Part shown: in pieces, positions 2,169 to 17,042 of the stretch | Layout of the letters: every line of letters begins with the position of its first letter | Numbering within the stretch: the first letter of the stretch is position 1 | From: Promethearchaeota archaeon | GTDB lineage: Archaea; Asgardarchaeota; Lokiarchaeia; Sigyniarchaeales; Promethearchaeaceae | Direction of reading: 5' to 3' | Assembly: GCA_016933055.1 (NCBI GenBank) | Contig: JAFGBS010000002.1 | Coordinates: 60,001-92,000 of the forward strand | DNA: 32,000 nucleotides | The notes under the pieces: model-generated | What the model was told of the DNA's origin: nothing | The model's database searches: none | Seen by the model: only the letters and a program-made list of their open reading frames with translations | Made by a program: the position numbers and the translations under genes

Positions 2169-2660
2169 ATGGATCCATTATCCCCGAAAGAATTAGAAAA
2201 ACTAAAATATGATTTAAGGAAGTACCCCATTCGTCCACATATCGGAGTTGGTGGATTATTCATACATAAAGGGCATATTCTGCTAATCCAAAGAAAATAT
2301 GACCCCGGTGCTCATAAGTGGTCTATCCCAGGAGGTCATTTAAAATTAGGGGAAATGTGTAAAGAAGGTGCAGAGCGAGAGTTTATGGAAGAGACTGCTC
2401 TTAAAGCAAATGCAAAAGACTTAGCAGGGATTATCGATACGGTAATCTATGATGACCAGCATAAAATAAAATATCATTACGTGTTAATTAATTATTTTAT
2501 GGAAGTCATCGATGAACGGTTTTCCGATGATAAGAGGATGCCGAAACTGGAAGCACATTCTGATGCGGAGGATATTCAATTTGTTCTCTTAGAGAACATC
2601 TCAAAATTGGAAATCACGGGATCATTACGAACCCTTCTGCAAGATCTTTCAATTCTCTAA
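2169..2660 (+). CDS. NUDIX hydrolase
   Basis: Nudix box GGHLKLGEMCKEGAEREFMEETAL, plus WSIPGG and YHYVLINY. Confidence 0.92.
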   Translation: MDPLSPKELEKLKYDLRKYPIRPHIGVGGLFIHKGHILLIQRKYDPGAHKWSIPGGHLKLGEMCKEGAEREFMEETALKANAKDLAGIIDTVIYDDQHKIKYHYVLINYFMEVIDERFSDDKRMPKLEAHSDAEDIQFVLLENISKLEITGSLRTLLQDLSIL

Positions 2661-2715
2661 TATTCCATTTTGCTATCCATAGGTTAATTTGGTTTGTGAG
2701 ATTGATCATGTTGTA

Positions 2716-4023
2716 ATGACGCTCCAGATGAAAAGTGCTAAAGCTGGAAATATAAGTCCCGAAATGGAAAAAATCGCGAAAAATGAAAGCATCGATGTCG
2801 AATTGGTAAGGAAAGGTATTGCAAGCGGAAGAATAGTAATTTTCAAGAGTACAACTAGTACCTGTAACCCATTAGGAATTGGAGAAGGGTTATCTGTTAA
2901 AATAAATAGCAATATTGGTGCTTCCCAAAAAGTTTTTGACATCCATCAAGAAGTGGAAAAAGCAAAAATTTCAGAACGATATGGAGCAGACACCATTATG
3001 GATTTAACATCTGGTCCCACCGAACAAGCTATACGCGAAGTGCGTTCGGCAGTTTTGAAAAATATCACAGTACCTTTAGGGACGGTTCCCATGTACCAAA
3101 TTGCAGTTCGTGCGATTGAAAAAGCAGGAGGAATCGTTAATATGACGGAAGATGATATGTTCTGCGTTGTGGAAGAACAGGCGAAAGAGGGGGTAGACTT
3201 TTTCACCATTCATGCCGGAGTAACAAAAACACTTGCCGAATATATTAAAAAACATCCCCGGTTTATGGGCATAGTAAGTCGTGGAGGAACTATAACCGCA
3301 GTTTGGACTTTACAAAACGATCTAGAAAATCCATTCTATTCTAATTTTGATTATTTATTGGAGATGGCTCAAAATTATGATTTTTCCTTATCGTTAGGGG
3401 ATGGATTCCGCCCTGGTTGCATTTTCGATTCTACCGATTACCCCCAAATCCAAGAACTTCTTACCTTATCTCGATTAGTTAAACGCGCGCATGAAAAGAA
3501 TGTTCAGATTATTTGTGAAGGTCCCGGACATATACCTGCTCATCAGATCGCAGAGAATATACGATTACAAAAATCCGTTACCGACGGAGCACCTTTTTAT
3601 GTGTTAGGACCCCTTGTAACGGATATTGCTCCGGGATATGACCATATTGTGGGGGCTATTGGGGGAGTGATTGCAGGTTTGAGTGGAGTAGATTATTTGT
3701 GTTATATTACTCCAGCAGAGCATTTAGGACTCCCCACATTGGAAGAGGTGAAAGAAGGAGTGATTACATTCAAGATTGCTGCCCATGCGATTGATTTAAC
3801 ACGCAATTGGGATCGAGCTTCCGCTTGGGATCAGAAAATGGATAGAGCTCGAAGAGACTTAGACTGGGAGGAGCAAATTAGAATCGGGATTGATCCAGAA
3901 AAAGCTAGATGTATTCGAGAAAGAGACGGTGCTATTGAACGGAATGAACCATGTACTATGTGTGGAAATCTCTGCGCCATCAAAATTCTGGAAGATACAA
4001 TAAAAAAGGATAAAGAGGATTAA
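2716..4023 (+). CDS. thiC: Phosphomethylpyrimidine synthase ThiC (radical SAM)
   Basis: VKINSNIGAS, GADTIMDL, GVDFFTIHAG, SLGDGFRPG, EGPGH, FYVLGPLVTDIAPGYDH, YITPAEHL and C-terminal CTMCGNLC (Cx2Cx4C). Neighbours are thiN and thiW. ATG 2716 chosen as the start. Confidence 0.93.
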   Translation: MTLQMKSAKAGNISPEMEKIAKNESIDVELVRKGIASGRIVIFKSTTSTCNPLGIGEGLSVKINSNIGASQKVFDIHQEVEKAKISERYGADTIMDLTSGPTEQAIREVRSAVLKNITVPLGTVPMYQIAVRAIEKAGGIVNMTEDDMFCVVEEQAKEGVDFFTIHAGVTKTLAEYIKKHPRFMGIVSRGGTITAVWTLQNDLENPFYSNFDYLLEMAQNYDFSLSLGDGFRPGCIFDSTDYPQIQELLTLSRLVKRAHEKNVQIICEGPGHIPAHQIAENIRLQKSVTDGAPFYVLGPLVTDIAPGYDHIVGAIGGVIAGLSGVDYLCYITPAEHLGLPTLEEVKEGVITFKIAAHAIDLTRNWDRASAWDQKMDRARRDLDWEEQIRIGIDPEKARCIRERDGAIERNEPCTMCGNLCAIKILEDTIKKDKED

Positions 4024-4580
4024 TCGACTAAATTTAAAATCAGTTGAATTTTTTCGATTAATTCATCTGAATTCTTAGCAAACAGACGGACCATGGGTTC
4101 TTTTCCCATTTCTCCCGTATCCCATATAATATCGGGTATTTTTTGATATTTTTGATATACATTATTGATGATCCAAGACATAGAGGAATCTTCGGTTTGT
4201 TGAGTCTCCATGGGCTGATTAGTGCGATCGATCTCCACAAGAAGAAGATGTGTGCGGGACAGGTTTTCAATGAGTTTTGGACTGTATCGAATATTAATAA
4301 CTGCTGAAATGGTTGGATCAAACTTTCTGGCGGTAAGTAATAATCTTCCTGTGTGGTTCGTTGCACCGAATGTGATAGGCCCTGCTGCTTTTGGCATACC
4401 TTGCACAATAGTGATTCGGCCATCCACACCAGCAATATCATCAAGAGATGTCGCATCTGGTGAAGCTACAGCGACATTTGTCCGAACCTCTGGAATGAGT
4501 CTAGAAAATTTCTTAGCACTGCTGATAAATTCAATAATATTTTTCACTTTTTCTAGTATTTCTTTGTGTTTTGAACGCAT
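4020..4580 (-). CDS. thiN: Stand-alone archaeal thiamine-phosphate synthase ThiN domain
   Basis: LIPEVRTNV, DIAGVDGRIT, FGATNHTGRLL, AVINIRYS, WDTGEMGKEPMVRLF. ATG at 4580 avoids overlap with the divergent gene, so the longer ORF call to 4736 looks spurious. Confidence 0.85.
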   Translation of the reverse strand: MRSKHKEILEKVKNIIEFISSAKKFSRLIPEVRTNVAVASPDATSLDDIAGVDGRITIVQGMPKAAGPITFGATNHTGRLLLTARKFDPTISAVINIRYSPKLIENLSRTHLLLVEIDRTNQPMETQQTEDSSMSWIINNVYQKYQKIPDIIWDTGEMGKEPMVRLFAKNSDELIEKIQLILNLVD

Positions 4581-4638
4581 GAGGGATTCACTTATAAAGA
4601 GTACAAAATTTTTAGGGAATTGCTTGTAGTATAGTGTT

Positions 4639-5790
4639 ATGCAAGGGTCGATCCCAAATATTGTCTTGGGTAGTATATTTTGTTTTTTTATGATTTTTCT
4701 TTCTGTTTTTATCGTTTTAATTTGGAAATCTTCCAAATTCCAAGGTATTGATCAACGTGTTTTTCTTGGGATCATCACATTTCTATATGGATTATTTGTT
4801 TTGTTAATTTCGTTCGATTTAACGTTGTTTCAGACGCAATTGGTTTTTATATTTAGTATTGGTCTAGTCAATGCATTACTCATCGCAATTTCTTTTGTGA
4901 TCCTATTAGGTTCAAAATATCTCATTGGTACTTTTATTTCTGGTATTTTTTTCATTATAGAAGTTGCTTTCATGATGATTACAACAACTATGCAAGACCT
5001 TTATATCGTTGCAGCTATTCTGATCTCAGTTCCATCCTTATTTTTCATTGTGATTGCTATCTACGCACAAAGTACAGCTAAAAAAAGAGAACTATATTTT
5101 AGTATTATATTTGCGATTTTTGGAATTGCTATTCTATCTAGTACTACTAGTTTGATGCTTATATTTAGTGATTCAGGACATTCATTATGGTTATTGATAT
5201 TATTATTAACCGGAGCCCTCAGCATATTGACATCGGTAATATATTTTCAAAAGGACGAAAGTCGGGGGTATCATCTAGCTTTACGTGTTGCTCTGACAGC
5301 AATGTTTACTGCGTTGGGCGTTGTTCTTAGTTTCATTAATCCTTTTGCGTATTTCGAATTGGGAGGTTTTAAAGTTAATCCGTTTGCTCATTTAATTAAT
5401 GCCATTGCAGGTGTATTTTTAGGTCCATTTTGGGCAGTCCTTGCAGCGTTATTTATAGCAATAATTCGGTTTAGTGTTGGCATCGGAACTATTTTTGCCT
5501 TTCCAGGGGGAATACCAGGGGCTTTAGTAGTGGGAATTGTAGCAGCCGTGATCAGTGCAATGAAACGAGAAAGATTCCGAATTATTGCTTCATTATGTGA
5601 ACCAATTGGAACTGTGGGTATTGGCGCAGTTATTAGTTACGCCTTTATGGGAGCACCTTCGACTATTTTCTTGTGGGGTGGTTTTGCTATTTCCTCAGTT
5701 CTTGGTTCCATTCTTGGTTTTACAATCCTCTTGATACTACGAAAGCGAAACATCAATTACTTTCAATTTGGTGAGAACGCGATTGGGTGA
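4639..5790 (+). CDS. thiW: Membrane protein: about 7 N-terminal TM helices fused to an ECF S-component ThiW (thiazole/thiamine-precursor binding)
   Basis: The C-terminal ~170 aa carry ThiW motifs (ALTAMFTALGVVLS, NPFAHLINAIAGVFLGP, GTIFAFPGGIPGALVVG, EPIGTVGIGA). Residues 5-203 are seven hydrophobic segments not belonging to ThiW. Confidence 0.8.
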   Translation: MQGSIPNIVLGSIFCFFMIFLSVFIVLIWKSSKFQGIDQRVFLGIITFLYGLFVLLISFDLTLFQTQLVFIFSIGLVNALLIAISFVILLGSKYLIGTFISGIFFIIEVAFMMITTTMQDLYIVAAILISVPSLFFIVIAIYAQSTAKKRELYFSIIFAIFGIAILSSTTSLMLIFSDSGHSLWLLILLLTGALSILTSVIYFQKDESRGYHLALRVALTAMFTALGVVLSFINPFAYFELGGFKVNPFAHLINAIAGVFLGPFWAVLAALFIAIIRFSVGIGTIFAFPGGIPGALVVGIVAAVISAMKRERFRIIASLCEPIGTVGIGAVISYAFMGAPSTIFLWGGFAISSVLGSILGFTILLILRKRNINYFQFGENAIG

Positions 5791-6469
5791 AGATGTAGTA
5801 TTTTACTCTAAATATTCACAATTTGGTAGAAATAATATTGTTCTATATTCTGATCCGTACTTATGTCATCAATTGCGATTATTAGCCTTCTCCGAATGCC
5901 TAGGGAAAAGTGTATTACTTTTTGGTGAATCTAATGTGGGAAAAACCGAAATTACTTCTGAATTTCTCTCTTTTGTGCTTTCCTCTTCAAAATTGGAGAA
6001 AATTTATGTTGTTGATATCGGTCCAGAGCGATTTCGGATGGGAGGGTTGGAAATCGGCGGGAAAATATCGGATTTTGATGACACATATCACACAAATCCA
6101 AAAGTTACGACATTTTCCTACCCTATTACCCCACCACGTAGTAATTCAAGTTCTTACTTGGAAATCTACAAAAAATCCTTGCAAAATTATAAAATAATAA
6201 TTAAGGATATGGAAAAAATAGTCGAATACCTTTTTTCACAACAAAGTATTTCGTGTGCTCTTATTATCAATGATCTCAGTATTTTTTTGCATATGGGTTC
6301 CTTAAGGCTAATACGATCCCTTTTAAAAACATCTCATACCATTTTCGTTAATTCCTATTATGGTACGGTTCTTTCAGATGATTTCGGTTCAAATCTTACC
6401 TTTAGAGAACGTGTGTTAGTCAATAGGATGATTCGACATTTTGATTATCCTATTCGCTTAATACATTAG
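5768..6469 (+). CDS. Hypothetical P-loop NTPase/kinase-like protein
   Basis: Walker A VLLFGESNVGKT and Walker-B-like LIINDLS. The TTG/GTG start overlaps the thiW-fusion stop. Confidence 0.65.
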   Translation: MVRTRLGEDVVFYSKYSQFGRNNIVLYSDPYLCHQLRLLAFSECLGKSVLLFGESNVGKTEITSEFLSFVLSSSKLEKIYVVDIGPERFRMGGLEIGGKISDFDDTYHTNPKVTTFSYPITPPRSNSSSYLEIYKKSLQNYKIIIKDMEKIVEYLFSQQSISCALIINDLSIFLHMGSLRLIRSLLKTSHTIFVNSYYGTVLSDDFGSNLTFRERVLVNRMIRHFDYPIRLIH

Positions 6470-7173
6470 CAAGATTGTTCAGAAGTGAGTTTTTCAATAA
6501 TATTCGCTACTTCTTCCAAAATTTTTGATAATTTAGACTTGGATAGAGAATCCCGGGATGATTCATTCAAGATCATTGTAAGATTTTGATAGGATCGCTG
6601 ATAAGCCCACAACGCTTTATCATCCAATCCTAAACTTTCAAAATCCTTTCCAAGGTAATAAAAAGCAAGAGGATACTTATAATTATTTTTGATTAAGCGC
6701 ATGAGAGTTGCTACGGAAAGGTCATACCGGCCACTGAGAAAATAAGTTTTTCCCAATAAGAATTTGGCTTCCTCATTGCTTGGATCGTCATGATCCAATA
6801 CATCAAAAATAATATTTAGACTCGCAGCGTATTTCTGTTCTAAGAGGAGCTTTTTTGCTCGGTTCAGTTTATCGATAACTACCACACATTCTTCAATTTC
6901 TGCTTCTTCATGCGGTATATCTGGGGGTAGTACTTCCTCAATTTGGGATTTTTTGGAATATCGATCCAAAATAACCTCAGAATATTTCGTATTACACACA
7001 GGACAGAATTCAGATTGTATCAGCCACATCTTTAAGCAAGGATCGATATGGAGATAATGCCCATTGTCACATGCCACATAATTTGCATCCTCTAGGTATT
7101 CCTCAGGATTTAATACTATTTTAGTATGGCATACAACACAACTGATCTCTGAATTCATGTATATCACGTACAT
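6466..7173 (-). CDS. RING-H2 finger plus TPR-repeat protein (putative E3 ubiquitin ligase)
   Basis: C12-x2-C15...C35-x3-H39-x2-H42-x3-C46-x3-W50...C57-P-x-C60, an acidic linker, then about 3 TPR-like helical pairs (AKFLLGKTYFLSGRY, AFYYLGKDFESLG). Confidence 0.8.
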   Translation of the reverse strand: MYVIYMNSEISCVVCHTKIVLNPEEYLEDANYVACDNGHYLHIDPCLKMWLIQSEFCPVCNTKYSEVILDRYSKKSQIEEVLPPDIPHEEAEIEECVVVIDKLNRAKKLLLEQKYAASLNIIFDVLDHDDPSNEEAKFLLGKTYFLSGRYDLSVATLMRLIKNNYKYPLAFYYLGKDFESLGLDDKALWAYQRSYQNLTMILNESSRDSLSKSKLSKILEEVANIIEKLTSEQSC

Positions 7174-7312: not shown

Positions 7313-7633
7313 CTATTTTTCTTCGTCTTTTTTCGCAATTTCGATCTCAATGGAAGAAACGTTTGAAACTTTACCATCGGCGTTTTTTAATTGTTCTGTG
7401 CTTAATCGGATATCAACGTAGATTGCATTGGTTACAAATTTCTTTTTTAGGATTTCTGCTACATCTACTGCTCTGCTAATTCGCTTGCCGCGTGCCTTGA
7501 TCGTACAGTGTTTAGCCTTACCCGTTTCCTCATCTTCCTCATTTAAAATAACCATTGCGGCCATTACATAATTCATAATAGGTCGTGTGCCGATGTATAC
7601 GCTCTGATCATTATCTTTATCATTTCTGGTCAT
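7313..7633 (-). CDS. albA: DNA/RNA-binding protein Alba, paralog A
   Basis: VYIGTRPIMNYV, IKARGKRISRAVDVAEI, VSNVSSIEIEI. Confidence 0.95.
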   Translation of the reverse strand: MTRNDKDNDQSVYIGTRPIMNYVMAAMVILNEEDEETGKAKHCTIKARGKRISRAVDVAEILKKKFVTNAIYVDIRLSTEQLKNADGKVSNVSSIEIEIAKKDEEK

Positions 7634-7701
7634 ATCTTTTACCTCTCGAGAGTTATATCACTTTTTCTAATGTGTTAAATTGGTTTGTCGCTATGTTGGT
7701 G

Positions 7702-7755
7702 TTGTCGTTGTACAGCTTTACGACTTGTAACTTTTATATGCAGACCGTATTTAAA
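7702..7755 (-). promoter_or_regulatory. Alba paralog A promoter/leader motif
   Basis: On the minus strand: TTTAAATA box (7755-7748), 20 nt, then CAAGTCGTA-N10-ACGACAA. Confidence 0.5.
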
Positions 7756-7841
7756 ATTTTTGAAAACTATCGAATGAATCTTGTGGGGGGGAATTTGCTT
7801 CACAATTCATGGAAAAAGGAAAAATAGAGAAGAATTGTAGT

Positions 7842-8156
7842 TTATTGAAGTTTTTCTCTTTCAGTTTCGGGAATAACAAGATCAATTTCAATTGAGGAAA
7901 CATTGCTTGTCTTCCCATCGGGATTGGGTCGTTGTTCGGTATTGAGTCTTATCTCTTCGTATTCGGCTTCGGGTACAAATTTGTTTTTTAGTATTTCAGC
8001 TACGTCAACTGCGGCGTTAATGGCTCTTCCTCGTGCCTTTAGAGACACGAAACGGTTCTTTTTAATGATCAACATGCTGGCTGTTATATAATTTATTTTT
8101 GGACTGTTACCGATGTATACAGAGAGTTCGTCGTCGTTTTTTTTCTCTTGTGGCAT
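7842..8156 (-). CDS. albA: DNA/RNA-binding protein Alba, paralog B
   Basis: VYIGNSPKINYI, LKARGRAINAAVDVAEI, TSNVSSIEIDL. Confidence 0.95.
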   Translation of the reverse strand: MPQEKKNDDELSVYIGNSPKINYITASMLIIKKNRFVSLKARGRAINAAVDVAEILKNKFVPEAEYEEIRLNTEQRPNPDGKTSNVSSIEIDLVIPETEREKLQ

Positions 8157-8209
8157 TTTTCATGGATCCTTGGGGTGATTTTGATAGTAATGATAGTAAT
8201 GATAGATTT

Positions 8210-8258
8210 TTGTCGTATGTACGACTTGCTAGAAAAAATAGCTACAAATATATTTAAA
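8210..8258 (-). promoter_or_regulatory. Alba paralog B promoter/leader motif
   Basis: On the minus strand: TTTAAATA box (8258-8251), 22 nt, then CAAGTCGTA-N3-ACGACAA. A short tandem TGATAGTAA repeat (about 2.7 copies, 8182-8205) lies downstream in the leader. Confidence 0.5.
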
Positions 8259-8311
8259 TGTAAGTAATGGAAGTAGAGAAAGAGTTGGAATTGTTCTTGG
8301 AAGAATTCTAT

Positions 8312-8569
8312 TTATTGTCCAAATTCGATGAAAACAACATTATCTCCGCGTATGAGAATTTGACCTAATTCCTCGCGTTCTTCCACAAGTTCCCCGTTTT
8401 CATTCTCAATTTCATAAATTTGAGTGCACTGATCTAAAAATAGGTTCAAGTGTTGATCAAATGATTTAAGCTCGCCTCGAAACAGACGGTTTTTCTTTAT
8501 TTTTATCAGAATTATCTTGTCCAAGCTTTTCCGTAGTTCTTCAATAGGATCCCGTATTGATCTCTGCAT
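8312..8569 (-). CDS. Sm/Lsm-like archaeal protein (SmAP)
   Basis: Sm1 motif FRGELKSFDQHLNLFL and Sm2 motif LIRGDNVVFI. ATG at 8569 (MQRSIRDPIEEL). Confidence 0.93.
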   Translation of the reverse strand: MQRSIRDPIEELRKSLDKIILIKIKKNRLFRGELKSFDQHLNLFLDQCTQIYEIENENGELVEEREELGQILIRGDNVVFIEFGQ

Positions 8570-8669
8570 TTCTAGTTTCCTCCAAGGGAGAATATTATTA
8601 CATAGAGTGCGCAAAATTAAAAGGTTTTGAATAAATTTACGAGAGAAAGGAGTGAATGGAGCATTAGAC

Positions 8670-10007
8670 TTATGGATTCATCAAGTTTTTATTTTTTTTA
8701 TCTTTCAGATAGTGTTTTAGTTCCTCTCCCACAATTTCGTTAACAATGGCGTAAAATTCTTTATCGCTTACCCCAGAGGTAATTTTAGCTAAATCTTTCT
8801 TAATCCTTTCAAAAATCTTTCTTATATCATCTTTAGGTGCTTTTTCTTGATGCTCCTTGACTTTCGCTACAATTTTACCTAAGACCTCTTTAGGAAAATC
8901 CATATCAATCAATTTGAGTTTTTCGGATAATGCATTGATTATTGCGCCACTACCTGATAATTTTCCCAAGTAAAATTTGCGGTTCCTTCCCACAACCTTT
9001 GGATTAATAGGTTCATAAGTTAAGGGATGACTAAGCATCGCATTTACATGTAACCCACTTTCATGACTGAAGGAAAATGGCCCTACTACGGGTTTGTGCA
9101 TGTTCAAAGGCAAACAAAATAAGCCTTCAACTAATTGACTTAATTCGTATAATTTTTCCAGTTTTATTCCTGTTTTTATACCCAGTCGTTCCAAATTCAT
9201 TACAACTTCTTCCAAAGCAGCATTTCCAGCGCGTTCTCCGTATCCATTTACGCAAGTATGGGGGTATTTTGCACCATATAGAACTGCTTGTACAGTATTA
9301 GCTACAGCAAGTCCGAAATCATTATGCATATGCACGCCTAATCCGATGGAACCATTAATACCTTGAATTTCTTTTTTGATTTTTTCAACTAAGTAGGCAA
9401 TAGAAGAGGGAATCATAACTCCAACAGTATCACTTAGGATGATGCGTTTTACTCCATTTTCCACGGCAACTTTATTCACATTTAGCAGATGATCCCATTC
9501 GGCCCGAGAAGCATCTTCAGACACCCAATTTACAACTAATCCGTGATCTATTGCATACACGATCATCTCTTCAATTAAGCTGATTTCTTTGGAAGGAGTC
9601 AGTTTAAGAATATTCATCATTAATTGAGAAACCGGCATGAAAAGAACGATTTCATCCACATTCGCTTGAATGCATGCATCAATATCGGATTTTCGAGGAC
9701 GCGCTATTGCAAGAATTTTACTACGGCTAAATCCCTCATTAGTGATAGTTTTTACAGTTTCTAACTCCGCTGAGGAAATTGCAGGAAATCCCACGGCAAT
9801 AAGCGAGACTCCAATTTCATCTAGAGCTTTGGCAATGGTGATTTTGTCCTCTTGCGTCAAATATACACCAGGAGATTGTTCTCCATCTCGAAGTGTTTCA
9901 TCCCATATTTCAACCTTCTTGGGATAATCTTTAGGGAGCACTCCCATATCAAAATTATAATCGTAGAGTTGATCTCGTACTTCCCTACTGGAGAATCGAT
10001 ATTTCAT
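8670..10007 (-). CDS. DRE-TIM metallolyase of the 2-isopropylmalate/homocitrate/citramalate synthase family
   Basis: DETLRDGEQSPG, VHMHNDFGLAVAN, NGYGERAGNAALEE, HESGLH. No recognisable LeuA C-terminal regulatory domain. Confidence 0.9.
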   Translation of the reverse strand: MKYRFSSREVRDQLYDYNFDMGVLPKDYPKKVEIWDETLRDGEQSPGVYLTQEDKITIAKALDEIGVSLIAVGFPAISSAELETVKTITNEGFSRSKILAIARPRKSDIDACIQANVDEIVLFMPVSQLMMNILKLTPSKEISLIEEMIVYAIDHGLVVNWVSEDASRAEWDHLLNVNKVAVENGVKRIILSDTVGVMIPSSIAYLVEKIKKEIQGINGSIGLGVHMHNDFGLAVANTVQAVLYGAKYPHTCVNGYGERAGNAALEEVVMNLERLGIKTGIKLEKLYELSQLVEGLFCLPLNMHKPVVGPFSFSHESGLHVNAMLSHPLTYEPINPKVVGRNRKFYLGKLSGSGAIINALSEKLKLIDMDFPKEVLGKIVAKVKEHQEKAPKDDIRKIFERIKKDLAKITSGVSDKEFYAIVNEIVGEELKHYLKDKKNKNLMNP

Positions 10008-10018
10008 ATAAATATCCT

Positions 10019-10063
10019 CAACTTGTCGACAGTTGATTCTGAGGTTGCTTCTTTATTAATAAA
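10019..10063. promoter_or_regulatory. Palindromes in the divergent LeuA-like / GPN GTPase promoter
   Basis: Near-perfect palindrome CAAC(T)TGTCGACAGTTG at 10019-10035 and perfect TTTATTAATAAA at 10052-10063 (TATA-like on both strands). Confidence 0.35.
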
Positions 10064-10142
10064 TCTTCATGGTGTTTTCGAAAATGAAAAAAAAGATGGG
10101 GGATTGTATACTTCATTCTTCGAATTAAACAAAGGTAACAAA

Positions 10143-10922
10143 ATGATATTCAATTATTGTATCGGTCCTGCAGGATCCGGAAAAACCACTTTAATAGCTA
10201 CGACGTATAATTATCTAACCGAAAAATACAAAGAATTACGAATCATTACCGTTAATTTAGATCCAGGGGTGAGAAATTTACCATATACTCCACATATTGA
10301 TATTCGGGATTACATTTTATTAGAAGAGGTCATGGAAAGGTATGGATTGGGACCAAATGGGGGATTAGTTGCTGCCACGGACATGATCATCGATAGTATC
10401 GAGGATTTGAAATTTGAGATTTCTGAGTATAATAATCCCGATGTTGTACTAATTGATACACCAGGTCAGATGGAGTTATTTGCATTTAGAAATACTGGAC
10501 CCATGGTAGTTAGTTCTTTAGGTTATGGAGACGTTCAAAAAGTGGTTTCATTTTTATTTGATCCAACCATTTGTCGACACCCCAGTGGTTACATTTCCAC
10601 AATGTTCCTTGCAGGATCAGTTCTATATCGTTTTGCGAATATTCCTCAAATAAATGTGTTATCTAAATCCGACCTTTTAGAACCGGATATCTTGGAACGG
10701 GTTCTCGCATGGAGTGAAGACTATGATAAATTGTTCTTAGCTACTGATAAAACTGAACGGGGGTTAGTTCGAGAATTAGATAGTGGTATATCAGAAATTT
10801 TTGAACGTTTACAAAACTTTCCCCGTTTACTTAGTGTTTCTAGTCTAGAATTTACGGGAATTGAAGAATACTGGGGGGCGATTCAGAGAACTTTGAATTT
10901 TGATGAATCTCCCTATTACTAA
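10143..10922 (+). CDS. GPN-loop GTPase
   Basis: GPAGSGKTT, NLDPG, signature GLGPNGGL, DTPGQMELF, LSKSDLL. ATG at 10143; the extension to 9852 overlaps the LeuA-like gene. Confidence 0.95.
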   Translation: MIFNYCIGPAGSGKTTLIATTYNYLTEKYKELRIITVNLDPGVRNLPYTPHIDIRDYILLEEVMERYGLGPNGGLVAATDMIIDSIEDLKFEISEYNNPDVVLIDTPGQMELFAFRNTGPMVVSSLGYGDVQKVVSFLFDPTICRHPSGYISTMFLAGSVLYRFANIPQINVLSKSDLLEPDILERVLAWSEDYDKLFLATDKTERGLVRELDSGISEIFERLQNFPRLLSVSSLEFTGIEEYWGAIQRTLNFDESPYY

Positions 10923-11162: not shown

Positions 11163-11237
11163 GGGTCCGTAGTCTAGCCAGGATAAGGTGCTGGCTTGCG
11201 GAGCCAGTTGTCGCAGGTTCGAATCCTGCCGGACCCG
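11163..11237 (+). tRNA. tRNA-Arg(GCG)
   Basis: Acceptor GGGTCCG/CGGACCC, G73, anticodon arm CTGGC-TTGCGGA-GCCAG (GCG at 11198-11200), T-arm GCAGG-TTCGAAT-CCTGC. No intron. Confidence 0.97.
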
Positions 11238-12134: not shown

Positions 12135-15100
12135 ATGGTAAATGCAGTTGGACAACCTCCACAAAATCCGAAAACCAATTTTGAAGATTTTTTTAGAAAC
12201 TACGAAGATAGCCCTAATCACTTCAAATATTTAGAAGAAATACAAAATGCTGCATTACGTAAAATCCAGTATATCTATGTCCTATTCGAAGACATTTTGT
12301 ACTATGATCCCTCCTTAGCAGAAATCTTACGGAAAGAGCCAGAAGAAACTTTAAAGCAAGGAGTGGATGCATTTAAAGATTTATTAAGGTATTATTCAAG
12401 AGGAAAGATCGACGATAAAAGGGACTATTTCGTTCGAATCACCACCAATAATAATTCTAATGAAGTAAATCTAAGAAAACTCCGAGCGGAGCATATTGAT
12501 AGACTTGTATATATTCATGGTATCTTGATACGAGCTTCTCAAATTATCCCACAAATCACTGAAGCAATATTCGAGTGCCCTGTCTGTCAGTTAGAAACCC
12601 GAGTTGAGCAAATTGAAAATGCTTTGATCGTGCCCAAACAATGTTCTAACTGTAAAAACAAATCGGGATTTATGGTAAAATCTAAGGACTCAAAATTTAT
12701 TGATTGGCAAAGTATTCAAATCCAAGAGTTACCCGAAGAATTGCAGCCAGGTCGTGTTCCTTATTCGATTAAAGGAATCCTAACGCACGATTTGGTGGAT
12801 ATTACTCGCCCTGGAGATCGCGTGAAAATCACTGGAATATTTAAAACCTATGTGAATGAAAATTCTCGAGGTAAAAAAACCACTCTCTTTACGCCTTATA
12901 TGAAAATCCTTAGCATTGAAGCACAGAACACAGAAAGAGATGCGTTGGATATAAGCCCCGAGGATGAGAAAGAATTCAAACGGCTTGCCGCAAAACCTAA
13001 TATCCAAGAGATTATTGCACGTTCTGTAGCACCATCCATTTTAGGAATGGACCACCTCAAAATGGCAGCTGCTCTTGCTTTATTTGGAGGAGTAAGGAAA
13101 CAAATGAAAGATGGGAGTGCACGTCGTGGGGATATTCATGTTTTATTCGTAGGAGATCCCGGTACAGGAAAAAGTATTCATGGAGACGAAAAAGTATATA
13201 TCGGTTATCCCGTGGAAAAAAAAATCAAATGGAATCAAATCCCAATAGGAGATCTTATTGATAATTTAATGAATGACAACAGGGAGGATATACTATCAAT
13301 AAATGGTTCGGAAATACTTCGATTAAATGAGAAAAATCAATTATTCACAGCTTCATTTAATTCTGATACATTTAAAACCCAGAAAGCAAAAATTATTGAA
13401 GTTAGTAGACATCAGACGGATAATTTAATTAAAATAACCACAAATTCAGGTCGGAGAATACTAACTACTCCCGATCACTCATTCAGTACTATCATTAACG
13501 GTAAACTAAAAGTGTTAACAGCAAATCAACTAAATCAAGAAATCTATCTTCCTGTCGCCAGACATCTGGAATTAAATGATTCACTAATAAGTAATTTTGC
13601 TGATATGACTATAAATATCCTTGAAAACGAAAATATAAGCGCCAACAATATTCATGAACCATGTAAATTATTAAAATCTAATCATATTGGGAAAATGGAA
13701 GCATGTGAAAATGCAAATATAACTCATGGAACATTTAATATATATACCGGCAATTTGGGTTCACTACCAAGAGGAGATTGGATAAGAACCAAGTTTGACA
13801 CACCGTGGTTTCCGAGAACCATACCATTTACTGAGGAATTCGGGAGATTAATTGGTTCTTATTTAGTTGAAGGAAATTCAGAAAAAACCATATTAAAGAT
13901 TACTAATACGAATGATGAAATTAAGAATATTCTATATTATGATTTTCACAAAATCTTTCAAAAATCTATTATCATCGAGAATGGATGCCTTTTATATCAA
14001 TCCAACATATATAAATGGTTTAAGATAAATTTTGGAACTTGTGCTACCAATAAGAAGATTCCATACCACTTTTTTATGACACCGAAGAAATTCCGTAAAA
14101 GCATACTCTCTGCATATTTTAGTGGAGATGGGTGGATTGAACTGAAAAGTGCGACTTTAAATGTATTAACCAAAAGTAAAGGATTAGCACTGTCTATATT
14201 GGATCTTCTAACTACTTTTGGTATTTATGGTTCCTATCATATTAAAAAGAAGAAGAAAGGGGAATATACGGATAATAAATATTACCAAATTAAAATCACA
14301 GGAAAAGAACTATATAAATATGCTAAGCTGATAGGATTTATTTCTGCGAAAAAACAAAGAACCCTTGAATCATTTGTCAAAACTTGGATTAGCCGTAAAC
14401 GATATCAATCCAATGACATAATCCCGAATATCGGGAATTTAATTAACGATGTAGATAATCAACTTGAACATGTCGGAAAACGAAGAAGTAGGGAAAGAAG
14501 TTATAAAGGAGAACTCTGGGCAAAAAACTGTAGACAACGAGTAGAAAGAATTTATTTACAAAACAAAGTTGAAAAATTAAAGGAGATATTTGAACAAAAA
14601 AATAAAGCATACTCAGATGAGTTACTACGTTTAGAGCAACTAGCTTATTCCGATATTTTTTGGGATACAATTATTTCTATAGAACCAGTAAAAGGAAAAT
14701 TCCTTGTATATGATATTGGTACCTCAGATGGACATTTTGTGGTTGCGAATGGTAACTTGATTGTGCATAACAGCCAGATTTTGAAGCAATGTGCGCATAT
14801 ATCCCCACAAGCAATTTATGCTTCCGGTAAAGGTTCTTCAGCTGCGGGACTTACTGCTGCTGTAGTCAGAGAAAACGATGCCGCGGGTCTATCGTTAGAA
14901 GCAGGTGCTCTGGTTCTTGCTGATGGAGGAAATGCAATTATCGACGAATTCGATAAAATGGATAATCGGGATCGTGTAGCTATCCATGAAGCTATGGAGC
15001 AGCAAAGTTATCACCCACAAACAGAAATTTTGACTACTTACGGTGAAAGAATTCAAATCGGAAAATTTGTCGACTTTTTGATGAAAAACCATTCCCAACA

Positions 15101-17042
15101 GGTGATTCAAGGGATTAATTGTGAAATTTTACCCACTTCAATCGTGGAAATCTACAGTTCAGATTTTGAAAAAGTGTTTAAAACAAGAATTGACCGAATA
15201 AGTAGACATAAAGCTCCTAATTTTTTTTGCAAAGTCAAATTTTCTAATGGACGATCGGTTATCGTCACTCCAGAGCATCCTATGTATGTGTTTAAGAACG
15301 GCGAGATTATGACCATCCCTGCTGAATATTGTAAAGAGGGGGATTTTATACCAGCTCCCTCATTTCTACCAAACTCTAGTGAACCTATAGAATTAGAGGG
15401 ACTTATTCCACCACTAGATTCAAATTCTAAGACAATTTTCCTACCAAGGAGTCTTAACAACAATATTGCACGTATTTTGGGATATCAGATTGACATAGAT
15501 CAATATTGTTGGGGATCAGCAGTAGAAATCGGATTTTCTAGTAAGGTTCTCACAGTGATCAATGATATTACACAATTATGTCAAAACGAATTTCATCTCA
15601 GTCCTACGTTTTCCACGCAACCAAATGGATTAATTACGTTGCATTTTAATTCTTTGGAATTATGTAGATGGTTTCATGCAAATTTTAGAGAAATACTGAA
15701 ATCAGACCGATATAAACGAATACCATCGAAAATCATGGCTGGAAGTAAATCCATAGCACGCTCCTTTCTCCAAGCCGTATTTAAAAAAAATGGTAGAATA
15801 AAATCGGATTCCATATGTTACCAGAGTAGATCCGATGGATTTTCAAGAGACATTCAAGATTTACTCCTCAAATTAGAAATACGATCCCGTATCATTCAGG
15901 AAATCCATAATCATGACTCCTATCAAGTACAAATTTGTGCTCATAGTTATTTAAAATTCTTTAGACTAATAATTGAGAAAGATGACAAACGGTTCAATAA
16001 GATTCTGAATCTGGTGAAGAAGAGTCCCCAGCCAAATGATCATAGAAAAATTCATTGGGAACACATCACAGAAATCCGGAAAATTTCTAATAAAGGAGAG
16101 TATTTCACTCCGTGGGTATATGATATAACCGTAGAACCCAATCATACCTTTATTTCTCAAGGCGTAATTCTTCATAACACGGTTAGTGTCGCCAAGGCAG
16201 GTATAATTGCGACTTTGAGGGCTCGTACATCCATTATTGCTGCTGCAAATCCGAAGATGGGACGATATTCTGAATATAAAACTCCTTCAGAAAACATTAA
16301 TTTAAGTCCCCCGATCCTTTCTAGGTTCGATCTTATTTTTATAGTAAAAGATACTCCCGATGAAACTTTTGACCAAGAAATTGCAGACTTCATCTTGGAT
16401 ATGAACACCGAGGATGCGTTAACAAATACGGGAACCAACAAAGATCCTATTATACCAGGTGATGAGCTACAGAAATATATTAAATATGCTCGAAATAAAG
16501 TTGTTCCAAAATTAACCCCAGAAGCTCGAAAAGTGATTCGAGATTTTTATGTGGATCTACGAAAGGTAAATAGAAATGATGAAAATGCAGCAATTGCAGT
16601 TGTTGCAAGAAATCTAGAAGGTTATATCCGAATAGCAGAAGCATATGCAAGAATGGCTTTACGTAATTATGTAACCAAAGAGGATGCCGAAGATGTTTTA
16701 AAACTAGCTCGAAGGAGTCTAGACGATACTAGTAGAGACCCCGACACAGGAAAATATGATGCCGATCGAGTATTAACCGGAATATCAGCAGCACGAGCAA
16801 AAATTGTCGGATTTTTAGATGAACTCAAGAAGAAGATTGATGCTAATAATGGGCAACCTATTGATGAGGATCAATTTCTGGCAGATCTGGAATTTGATAA
16901 GGATATCGAAGGATCGAAACTGAGAAAATTATTAGAAAATCTTGTAAATGAAGGTACAGTTTACAGACCAAGTCCTGGCAAAATAGACTTATGTCCAGAT
17001 AGTGAAAAGGATGATATTCAGTTAAAAAATAAAAAAAAATAA
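12135..17042 (+). CDS. mcm: MCM replicative helicase precursor with two inteins (mature protein about 711 aa)
   Basis: LRKLRAEHIDRLV, Zn finger CPVC...CSNC, Walker A GDPGTGK|SQ, Walker B IIDEFDKM, HEAMEQQ|TVSVAKAG, AAANP, ILSRFDLIF, ARNLEGYIR, C-terminal winged helix. Confidence 0.97.
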   Translation: MVNAVGQPPQNPKTNFEDFFRNYEDSPNHFKYLEEIQNAALRKIQYIYVLFEDILYYDPSLAEILRKEPEETLKQGVDAFKDLLRYYSRGKIDDKRDYFVRITTNNNSNEVNLRKLRAEHIDRLVYIHGILIRASQIIPQITEAIFECPVCQLETRVEQIENALIVPKQCSNCKNKSGFMVKSKDSKFIDWQSIQIQELPEELQPGRVPYSIKGILTHDLVDITRPGDRVKITGIFKTYVNENSRGKKTTLFTPYMKILSIEAQNTERDALDISPEDEKEFKRLAAKPNIQEIIARSVAPSILGMDHLKMAAALALFGGVRKQMKDGSARRGDIHVLFVGDPGTGKSIHGDEKVYIGYPVEKKIKWNQIPIGDLIDNLMNDNREDILSINGSEILRLNEKNQLFTASFNSDTFKTQKAKIIEVSRHQTDNLIKITTNSGRRILTTPDHSFSTIINGKLKVLTANQLNQEIYLPVARHLELNDSLISNFADMTINILENENISANNIHEPCKLLKSNHIGKMEACENANITHGTFNIYTGNLGSLPRGDWIRTKFDTPWFPRTIPFTEEFGRLIGSYLVEGNSEKTILKITNTNDEIKNILYYDFHKIFQKSIIIENGCLLYQSNIYKWFKINFGTCATNKKIPYHFFMTPKKFRKSILSAYFSGDGWIELKSATLNVLTKSKGLALSILDLLTTFGIYGSYHIKKKKKGEYTDNKYYQIKITGKELYKYAKLIGFISAKKQRTLESFVKTWISRKRYQSNDIIPNIGNLINDVDNQLEHVGKRRSRERSYKGELWAKNCRQRVERIYLQNKVEKLKEIFEQKNKAYSDELLRLEQLAYSDIFWDTIISIEPVKGKFLVYDIGTSDGHFVVANGNLIVHNSQILKQCAHISPQAIYASGKGSSAAGLTAAVVRENDAAGLSLEAGALVLADGGNAIIDEFDKMDNRDRVAIHEAMEQQSYHPQTEILTTYGERIQIGKFVDFLMKNHSQQVIQGINCEILPTSIVEIYSSDFEKVFKTRIDRISRHKAPNFFCKVKFSNGRSVIVTPEHPMYVFKNGEIMTIPAEYCKEGDFIPAPSFLPNSSEPIELEGLIPPLDSNSKTIFLPRSLNNNIARILGYQIDIDQYCWGSAVEIGFSSKVLTVINDITQLCQNEFHLSPTFSTQPNGLITLHFNSLELCRWFHANFREILKSDRYKRIPSKIMAGSKSIARSFLQAVFKKNGRIKSDSICYQSRSDGFSRDIQDLLLKLEIRSRIIQEIHNHDSYQVQICAHSYLKFFRLIIEKDDKRFNKILNLVKKSPQPNDHRKIHWEHITEIRKISNKGEYFTPWVYDITVEPNHTFISQGVILHNTVSVAKAGIIATLRARTSIIAAANPKMGRYSEYKTPSENINLSPPILSRFDLIFIVKDTPDETFDQEIADFILDMNTEDALTNTGTNKDPIIPGDELQKYIKYARNKVVPKLTPEARKVIRDFYVDLRKVNRNDENAAIAVVARNLEGYIRIAEAYARMALRNYVTKEDAEDVLKLARRSLDDTSRDPDTGKYDADRVLTGISAARAKIVGFLDELKKKIDANNGQPIDEDQFLADLEFDKDIEGSKLRKLLENLVNEGTVYRPSPGKIDLCPDSEKDDIQLKNKKK
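13173..14771 (+). mobile_element. Intein 1 in MCM Walker A (533 aa) with LAGLIDADG homing endonuclease
   Basis: Inserted between GDPGTGK and SQILK. Starts with Ser (SIHGDE), block B TTPDH, ends IVHN. LAGLIDADG blocks LIGSYLVEG and LSAYFSGDG. Confidence 0.93.
15006..16178 (+). mobile_element. Intein 2 in MCM (391 aa) with degenerate homing endonuclease
   Basis: Inserted between HEAMEQQ and TVSVAKAG. Starts SYHPQTE, block B VTPEH, ends ILHN. Endonuclease blocks read ILGYQIDIDQ and LQAVFKKNG. Confidence 0.93.

Follow-up and report, generated by a model that had tools for sequence, protein, structure and literature searches.

A ThiW-linked family of P-loop proteins as candidate thiazole kinase of archaeal thiamine salvage

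Introduction

Many archaea, including Asgard groups and several hyperthermophiles in culture, are unable to synthesize the thiazole moiety of vitamin B1, and we know of no enzyme in these organisms that phosphorylates the thiazole they salvage. The question of how this step is carried out is raised in compact form by a thiamine island within a 32,000-nucleotide stretch of an Asgard genome, which we refer to as the window (Promethearchaeota archaeon, GenBank assembly GCA_016933055.1, contig JAFGBS010000002.1, positions 60,001 to 92,000). Overlapping the 3' end of a gene for the transport protein ThiW lies an open reading frame (ORF) for a P-loop protein, in which an initial annotation of the window had seen a candidate for a missing kinase of hydroxymethylpyrimidine (HMP), thiazole or thiamine, or else for an ATPase partner of ThiW. 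Here we argue from genomic evidence that the protein is probably a non-orthologous hydroxyethylthiazole (HET) kinase that is coupled to ThiW-mediated uptake and replaces ThiM, a reading to which we assign a probability of roughly 70%.

Results

A single gap in the thiamine pathway of the host genome

The window has a G+C content of about 35% and belongs to an Asgard genome of 3.76 Mb that is 91% complete. Its thiamine island encodes the HMP phosphate (HMP-P) synthase ThiC at 2689..4023 on the forward strand (Pfam ThiC_Rad_SAM, 590 bits) and, on the reverse strand at 4020..4736, the only thiamine-phosphate synthase ThiN of the genome (Pfam ThiN, 189 bits); the latter coordinates are those of the maximal ORF, and the true start of ThiN is probably internal to it. 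At 4639..5790 on the forward strand follows a gene for a multi-pass membrane domain fused to a ThiW S-component (Pfam ThiW, 114 bits; TIGR02359, 112 bits), with the ThiW domain occupying residues 216-371 (nucleotides 5284-5751). This ThiW protein is 383 amino acids (aa) long and has a hydrophobic N-terminal domain of about 210 aa; a long form (379 aa) is also found in the syntenic locus L001, and most other ThiW proteins measure 165-200 aa.

Elsewhere in the host genome, we found a canonical ThiD (328 bits) and a ThiL that scores above its cut-off (202 bits). ThiM was not found in this 91%-complete genome, in which the only match, at 26 bits, lies in an Nnr protein; Thi4 gave FAD-motif matches only, and ThiG and ThiE gave none. 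With ThiC, ThiD, ThiN, ThiL and ThiW present and ThiM absent, the sole unfilled step is therefore the phosphorylation of the thiazole, HET. In published reconstructions, ThiW serves to import HET, and organisms auxotrophic for HET are stated to obtain HET phosphate (HET-P) by uptake followed by the action of ThiM (PMC6593275). Two of the roles that the initial annotation had considered are not needed in this setting, since ThiD provides an HMP kinase, and is moreover fused to ThiN beside most of the corresponding gene sets in Thermoproteota, while ThiL provides a thiamine-phosphate kinase. The thiazole kinase option is the one that is strongly supported, by the pathway gap just described and by the gene neighborhood, a natural fusion to ThiW and complementarity with ThiM.

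The P-loop gene is tightly linked to ThiW across two phyla

Related loci were located with a 15-sequence sub-alignment, and the ORFs of 88 loci were scanned with purpose-built hidden Markov models. These loci come from Asgard archaea and many orders of Thermoproteota, including Thermofilaceae, Desulfurococcales, Sulfolobales, Nitrososphaeria-type lineages, Brockarchaeota, Bathyarchaeia and Methanomethylicia. ThiW is encoded immediately upstream of the P-loop gene and in the same direction in 70 of the 88, with a gap that is mostly between -83 and +45 nt and usually with overlap of the two genes; it is divergent in nine loci, convergent in one and fused to the P-loop protein in one, and it is not in the locus in six cases, three of which lie at contig ends. 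Three homologues with 33-50% identity each stand directly 3' of ThiW in a broader context that varies. The fusion, of about 385 aa with ThiW at the N terminus and the P-loop protein at the C terminus, defines a clade of Bathyarchaeia made up of six 90%-identity clusters (P0048 and P0165-P0169), one of them on a 759-kb contig; in L040, ThiC comes next after it. All told, the link to ThiW persists through co-directional, divergent, convergent and fused arrangements, as well as through arrangements in which the two genes lie 1.5 kb apart or on separate contigs, in two phyla and many orders.

The remaining genes of these operons point to the same step. ThiD-ThiN fusions flank the ThiW/P-loop module in 26 of 27 Pfam-scanned loci and CytX-like permeases do so in 5. 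Importers for both precursors are thus encoded in those operons together with the HMP kinase and the enzyme that does the coupling, and the P-loop protein falls into the slot of the thiazole kinase. The initial annotation had named gene neighborhoods as a check of its proposal, which a family unconnected with thi genes in a host with its own canonical thiD/thiM would have undermined; what we find is a family tightly tied to thi genes and a host genome in which no thiM was detected.

The P-loop family and ThiM exclude each other in the sampled Thermoproteota

Among 251 sampled genomes of Thermoproteota, 79 encode ThiW and 78 encode a member of the P-loop family, all of the latter being among those 79. 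The corresponding counts for 201 Asgard genomes are 42 and 44, with the two genes adjacent, and true ThiM was found in none of the 201. Full-length ThiM (248-288 bits) is present in 11 of the 251 Thermoproteota genomes, and the P-loop family is present in none of these 11. The sole Thermoproteota genome with ThiW and without the P-loop gene (G409) bears a full-length ThiM of 259 bits, so that each sampled ThiW genome, 78 with the P-loop gene and one with ThiM, has exactly one of the two. The operon of G409 reads ThiW-EcfA-EcfA'-(membrane protein); the 80 nt that follow ThiW are too short for a P-loop gene, and no remnant of one was detected within 4 kb. The anti-correlation with thiM that the initial annotation had asked about takes the form of mutual exclusion in this sample. 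Weak matches to PF02110, the Pfam model of ThiM, were considered as a hidden ThiM and rejected; they are NAD(P)HX dehydratases (Carb_kinase/Nnr), which score 170-185 bits to Carb_kinase. Thi4 is also depleted in genomes that carry the module, being found in 23 of the 78 module-bearing Thermoproteota genomes and in 113 of the 173 others. A further 50 module-bearing genomes contained no true ThiM, and Thi4 was found in 10-11 of them.

A conserved P-loop family with a predicted RecA-like fold

The ORF at 5768-6469(+) is a real gene. In its maximal form, it encodes 233 aa from a TTG start at 5768, and a second candidate TTG start lies at 5783; each overlaps the ORF of the membrane-domain-ThiW fusion, whose TGA stop is at 5788-5790, by 23 nt for the former start and by 8 nt for the latter. 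The start at 5783 is the more likely one, because residue 6 is where both the publicly available gene call and the Atlas entry begin and because GGTGA lies about 10 nt upstream, which places the gene for the ThiW-associated P-loop protein at 5783..6469(+). Its product matches the family profile with 185 bits. The label "orphan" given to it by the initial annotation does not hold, as an exhaustive HMMER search at E<=1e-3 retrieved at least 186 representative clusters (50% identity), mostly of about 190 aa; no model in Pfam or NCBIfam covers the family.

The Walker A motif GESNVGKT (residues 53-60, 5924..5947), the strand LIINDLS (residues 165-171, 6260-6280) and the overlap of the start with the upstream stop, all of them noted in the initial annotation, were found in place. 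In 82 aligned homologues, G53, K59, P86, R124, N140, D169 and E214 are invariant, and T60, D83, G97, N168, S/T171, H/Q175, T191, Y197 and G199 are at least 95% conserved, a level of conservation that argues against chance occurrence of the motifs. The protein thus carries both hallmarks of a P-loop NTPase: a Walker A motif of the form GxxxxGK[ST], in which G53 and K59 are conserved at 100%, T60 at 98% and an acidic residue at position 54 at 93%, and a Walker B hydrophobic strand, ALIIND (strand 163-168 in the model), with the invariant D169. Within the Walker B-like segment IINDLS (6263..6280), N168 is conserved at 96% and S/T171 at 100%, and position 170 is L, V or I, so that the residue after the Walker B aspartate is hydrophobic and the "DE" pair is absent. 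Further conserved features on the forward strand are the D-x-x-P motif (D83 to P86, 6014..6025) at the end of the modeled strand beta-2, with position 83 being D in 95% and E in 5% of the homologues and P86 conserved at 100%; the Pro-Arg pair P123-R124 (6134..6139; P123 at 94%) after strand beta-3; and E214 (6407..6409) in the last helix, after a conserved D-x-G-S-G-I-S loop. About 14 polar residues are invariant or nearly so across the roughly 190 aa of the family.

Some lineages depart from this pattern. The clade of the window protein carries about 40 extra N-terminal residues, which form three confident beta-strands in the model, and a divergent subgroup has a shorter loop before E214 and comes after ThiW, EcfA-EcfT or a major facilitator superfamily (MFS) transporter gene. 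The MFS-preceded members (L105:1558-2154 and L106:379-975) overlap the transporter gene by 4 nt and have no ThiW there; the MFS gene in L105 is seemingly split (335 + 118 aa). In another locus (L094:5953-6520, genome G250), the P-loop gene is broken into fragments of 90 and 75 aa beside an intact ThiW, which may reflect a frameshift or a pseudogene.

An AlphaFold2 model built from the family alignment is of high confidence (predicted local distance difference test score, pLDDT, 95.5; predicted template modeling score, pTM, 0.91) and has a RecA-like fold. Structural matches include Rho (Z 14.4), CobA (12.8), FlaH (12.7), DMC1 (11.0), CobU (10.6) and RecA (10.4), followed by thymidine kinase 1 (TK1; 10.1), KaiC (about 10) and THEP1 (9.7); those to Rho, FlaH, DMC1 and RecA extend over about 150-170 residues. 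Foldseek matched F1-beta and Rho with a probability of 1.0. Searches of PDB and Pfam with a profile of the 82 members returned matches local to the P-loop only. A relationship to the polynucleotide kinases Clp1/Grc3 was considered and dropped; Clp1 was the best PDB match by sequence at a non-significant E value of 0.29, and it did not reappear among the top matches of the profile search. The natural ThiW-P-loop fusion P0048 was folded as a stand-in for a co-fold, from an alignment of the six fusions and additional ThiW rows, and the resulting model (pLDDT 79.9, pTM 0.53) has a disordered linker at residues 192-202.

Separate ECF modules occur in genomes with the P-loop gene

S-components such as ThiW are encoded beside the ATP-binding cassette (ABC) ATPases EcfA and EcfA' of energy-coupling factor (ECF) transporters, and 47 of 50 module-bearing genomes encode the membrane component of this machinery, EcfT, of which the host genome has four copies. 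The operon of Desulfurococcales and Sulfolobales runs ThiW, P-loop gene, ABC ATPase, ABC ATPase and a membrane protein of 220 aa that carries a GRG motif and resembles a short EcfT. In L079 (7856-8560), L084 (7865-8527) and L111 (1554-2180), the place of EcfT behind a pair of ABC ATPase genes is taken by short membrane proteins (about 210-235 aa) that match no Pfam model; the GRG motif is present in those of L079 and L084, and all three probably represent a divergent T component that escapes the CbiQ model. The large thiamine cluster of L110 is arranged as ThiF/ThiS-like, ThiW, fused EcfAA', EcfT, DUF2284, P-loop, Thi4 and ThiD-ThiN, where the DUF2284 gene (3597-4190) separates EcfT from the P-loop gene. 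Methanomethylicia-type genomes have ThiW about 2 kb from an EcfT gene and the P-loop gene on a separate contig. The presence of EcfA, EcfA' and EcfT genes in the same operon as the P-loop gene in several lineages makes an energizer role for the P-loop protein unlikely. The window protein itself has no match to Pfam ABC_tran, which gave weak matches confined to the P-loop in 2 of the 82 members, and no SGG motif, as would be part of the ABC signature LSGGQ, is found in its sequence.

Discussion

The connection between the P-loop family and ThiW admits more than one explanation, and several observations weigh against the thiazole kinase proposed here. An ATPase subunit, too, would be tightly coupled or fused to its transporter, and the top structural matches, Rho and FlaH, are motor ATPases. 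Because the fold class comprises small-molecule kinases or transferases as well as motor ATPases, the predicted RecA-like fold alone cannot tell a kinase from an ATPase and leaves the function undecided, and the fold of the P0048 fusion shows no confident docking of its two domains. In an Asgard subclade (P0012, P0013 and P0023; for example L002:8001-8588), the Walker A motif is deviant, reading GETNTKKT, GETNTNKT or GETNTRKT, with the second glycine replaced and the remaining family motifs kept. The complementarity with ThiM hangs, in the sampled phyla, on one genome with both ThiW and ThiM, and the sampled genomes are related, so that the counts are not independent events; this kinship weakens them, yet the pattern outlasts many changes of gene order, including the placement of the genes on separate contigs. 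Finally, about 30% of module-bearing genomes also have Thi4, so that the P-loop gene is not always essential.

One rival explanation casts the protein as an ATPase subunit dedicated to the ThiW transporter, acting as an energizer, a gate or an assembly factor and not on thiazole. A gene that adjoins, overlaps or is fused with ThiW and that in one subgroup directly follows EcfA-EcfT would suit such a subunit, as would a fold closest to motor ATPases. Nevertheless, we consider it unlikely, since the transporter appears to be served already: EcfT is present in nearly all of the 50 module-bearing genomes, complete EcfA-EcfA'-T sets share the operon with the P-loop gene in several lineages, and G409 has ThiW-EcfAA'T without the P-loop protein where ThiM is present. 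Some members moreover come after an MFS transporter, a class of carriers that needs no ATPase, and the protein lacks the ABC signature and any Pfam ABC_tran match. Assigning the protein to transport would also leave the module genomes without any thiazole kinase. Two details of the sequence may also suit an enzyme better than a motor: no glutamate follows the Walker B aspartate, and strand beta-2 ends in Asp83, not in glutamate, with a hydrophobic residue behind it. RecA-type ATPases have their water-activating glutamate at the end of this strand, a position to which Asp83 may correspond.

Alternatively, the protein might act elsewhere in thiamine metabolism, as a thiamine, thiamine-phosphate or HMP kinase, or as a nucleotidyltransferase that makes an ADP-thiazole-like intermediate. 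The strong thi-gene context is compatible with any of these activities, and CobA and CobU, enzymes of the same fold, transfer adenosyl or nucleotidyl groups. We regard this as quite unlikely, because ThiD and ThiL are accounted for in the host genome, ThiD-ThiN adjoins most loci, salvage requires no adenylylated intermediate, and the exclusion is specifically with ThiM, which indicates the thiazole kinase step. Very unlikely in our view is a regulatory or chaperone-like NTPase, or an association with ThiW that reflects inherited gene order without shared function. It is true that related genomes share operons by descent, but the link has outlasted gene-order changes across two phyla and many orders, and so many near-invariant polar residues in so small a protein are typical of an enzyme pocket.

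If the P-loop protein is indeed a HET kinase, its place in the pathway can be sketched. ThiW, working with a shared or dedicated ECF module, would import HET (4-methyl-5-(2-hydroxyethyl)thiazole) or a closely related precursor, for example a carboxylated form, and the P-loop enzyme, which to judge from the fusions is probably kept at ThiW, would move the gamma-phosphate of a nucleoside triphosphate onto the hydroxyethyl group during or just after uptake. ThiN would then join HET-P to the HMP diphosphate supplied by ThiC and ThiD to form thiamine phosphate, which ThiL would convert to the cofactor. By analogy with general P-loop chemistry, K59/T60 and D169 are likely to bind the Mg-nucleotide. 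D83, or else E54 or E214, may act on the substrate hydroxyl, with D83 as the candidate base, and conservation hints at roles in the site for R124, N140, Y197 and E214 as well as for D83. A more daring version of the idea is that the enzyme docks on the cytoplasmic face of ThiW so that uptake and phosphorylation of thiazole become one vectorial, group-translocation-like step, making the EcfAA'T motor dispensable in some lineages such as those in which an Asgard ThiW carries an extra membrane domain; we consider this extension doubtful.

The proposed enzyme has both functional counterparts and structural relatives among known proteins. ThiM (EC 2.7.1.50; Pfam HK, PF02110) carries out the same predicted reaction in the same genomic niche, where it works with ThiW, the importer of HET, and supplies thiamine-phosphate synthase. 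Its ribokinase-like fold and its sequence are unrelated to those of the RecA-like P-loop family, however, and PF02110, to which a true ThiM scores 288 bits, has no match in the window protein or its 82 relatives. Closer in structure are CobU (adenosylcobinamide kinase/guanylyltransferase), TK1 and CobA (corrinoid adenosyltransferase), which are likewise compact, single-domain RecA-like P-loop proteins with small-molecule substrates. Identity to these is 9-16% with no sequence match at the profile level, and the motif set of the P-loop family (D-x-x-P, P-R, N, N-D, Y-x-G and E) differs from theirs. Rho, FlaH and KaiC are the best overall structural matches and also give sequence matches limited to the P-loop; the family differs from them in having no glutamate after the Walker B aspartate. 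EcfA and EcfA' resemble the protein in binding nucleotide and in being encoded beside S-components, whereas the P-loop protein has about 190 aa, lacks the ABC signature and shares operons with EcfA, EcfA' and EcfT themselves.

The PnuC/NadR and PnuT/thiamine pyrophosphokinase pairs each combine a carrier for a vitamin precursor with a kinase by which the compound, once imported, is trapped. The proposed ThiW/P-loop pair would follow the same trapping logic, although its carrier is an ECF S-component, its kinase belongs to another family and the two are fused in one clade. Full-text searches, which mostly leave out subscription journals, turned up no paper that links ThiW to a P-loop partner. 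If the assignment is correct, it closes the thiazole-phosphorylation gap in archaeal metabolic reconstructions, names a protein family that neither Pfam nor NCBIfam contains, and adds another case in which one enzymatic step has been solved by an unrelated fold. It should also allow better predictions of vitamin auxotrophy and cross-feeding in anoxic and in hot environments.

Other features of the window

No thiamine pyrophosphate riboswitch reached the Rfam threshold in the window, where the only hit to do so was a tRNA at 11163-11237. Immediately upstream of ThiC lies a NUDIX hydrolase gene (2169..2660, forward strand) that recurs in L001 and in the P0010 contigs and may encode a thiamine-related Nudix enzyme. 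Convergent with the P-loop gene, at 6466-7173(-), is a gene for a protein of 235 aa with an N-terminal RING-like zinc finger (weak matches to zf-RING_2 and related models) and C-terminal tetratricopeptide repeats (TPR); L001 and the P0010 contigs also have a protein of similar size next to the ThiW module, of 248 aa in the former and of 244 aa, with a faint TPR match, in the latter. Farther downstream, two Alba genes, an LSM gene and a gene for a GPN-loop GTPase (ATP_bind_1), at 7313-8614(-) and 9852-10922(+), are arranged in the same order in L001, a contig of 50% identity. The ORF at 12135-17042(+) encodes 1635 aa, and its syntenic counterpart in L001 is an MCM helicase with two LAGLIDADG-bearing inteins, a finding that pertains to the L001 copy only.

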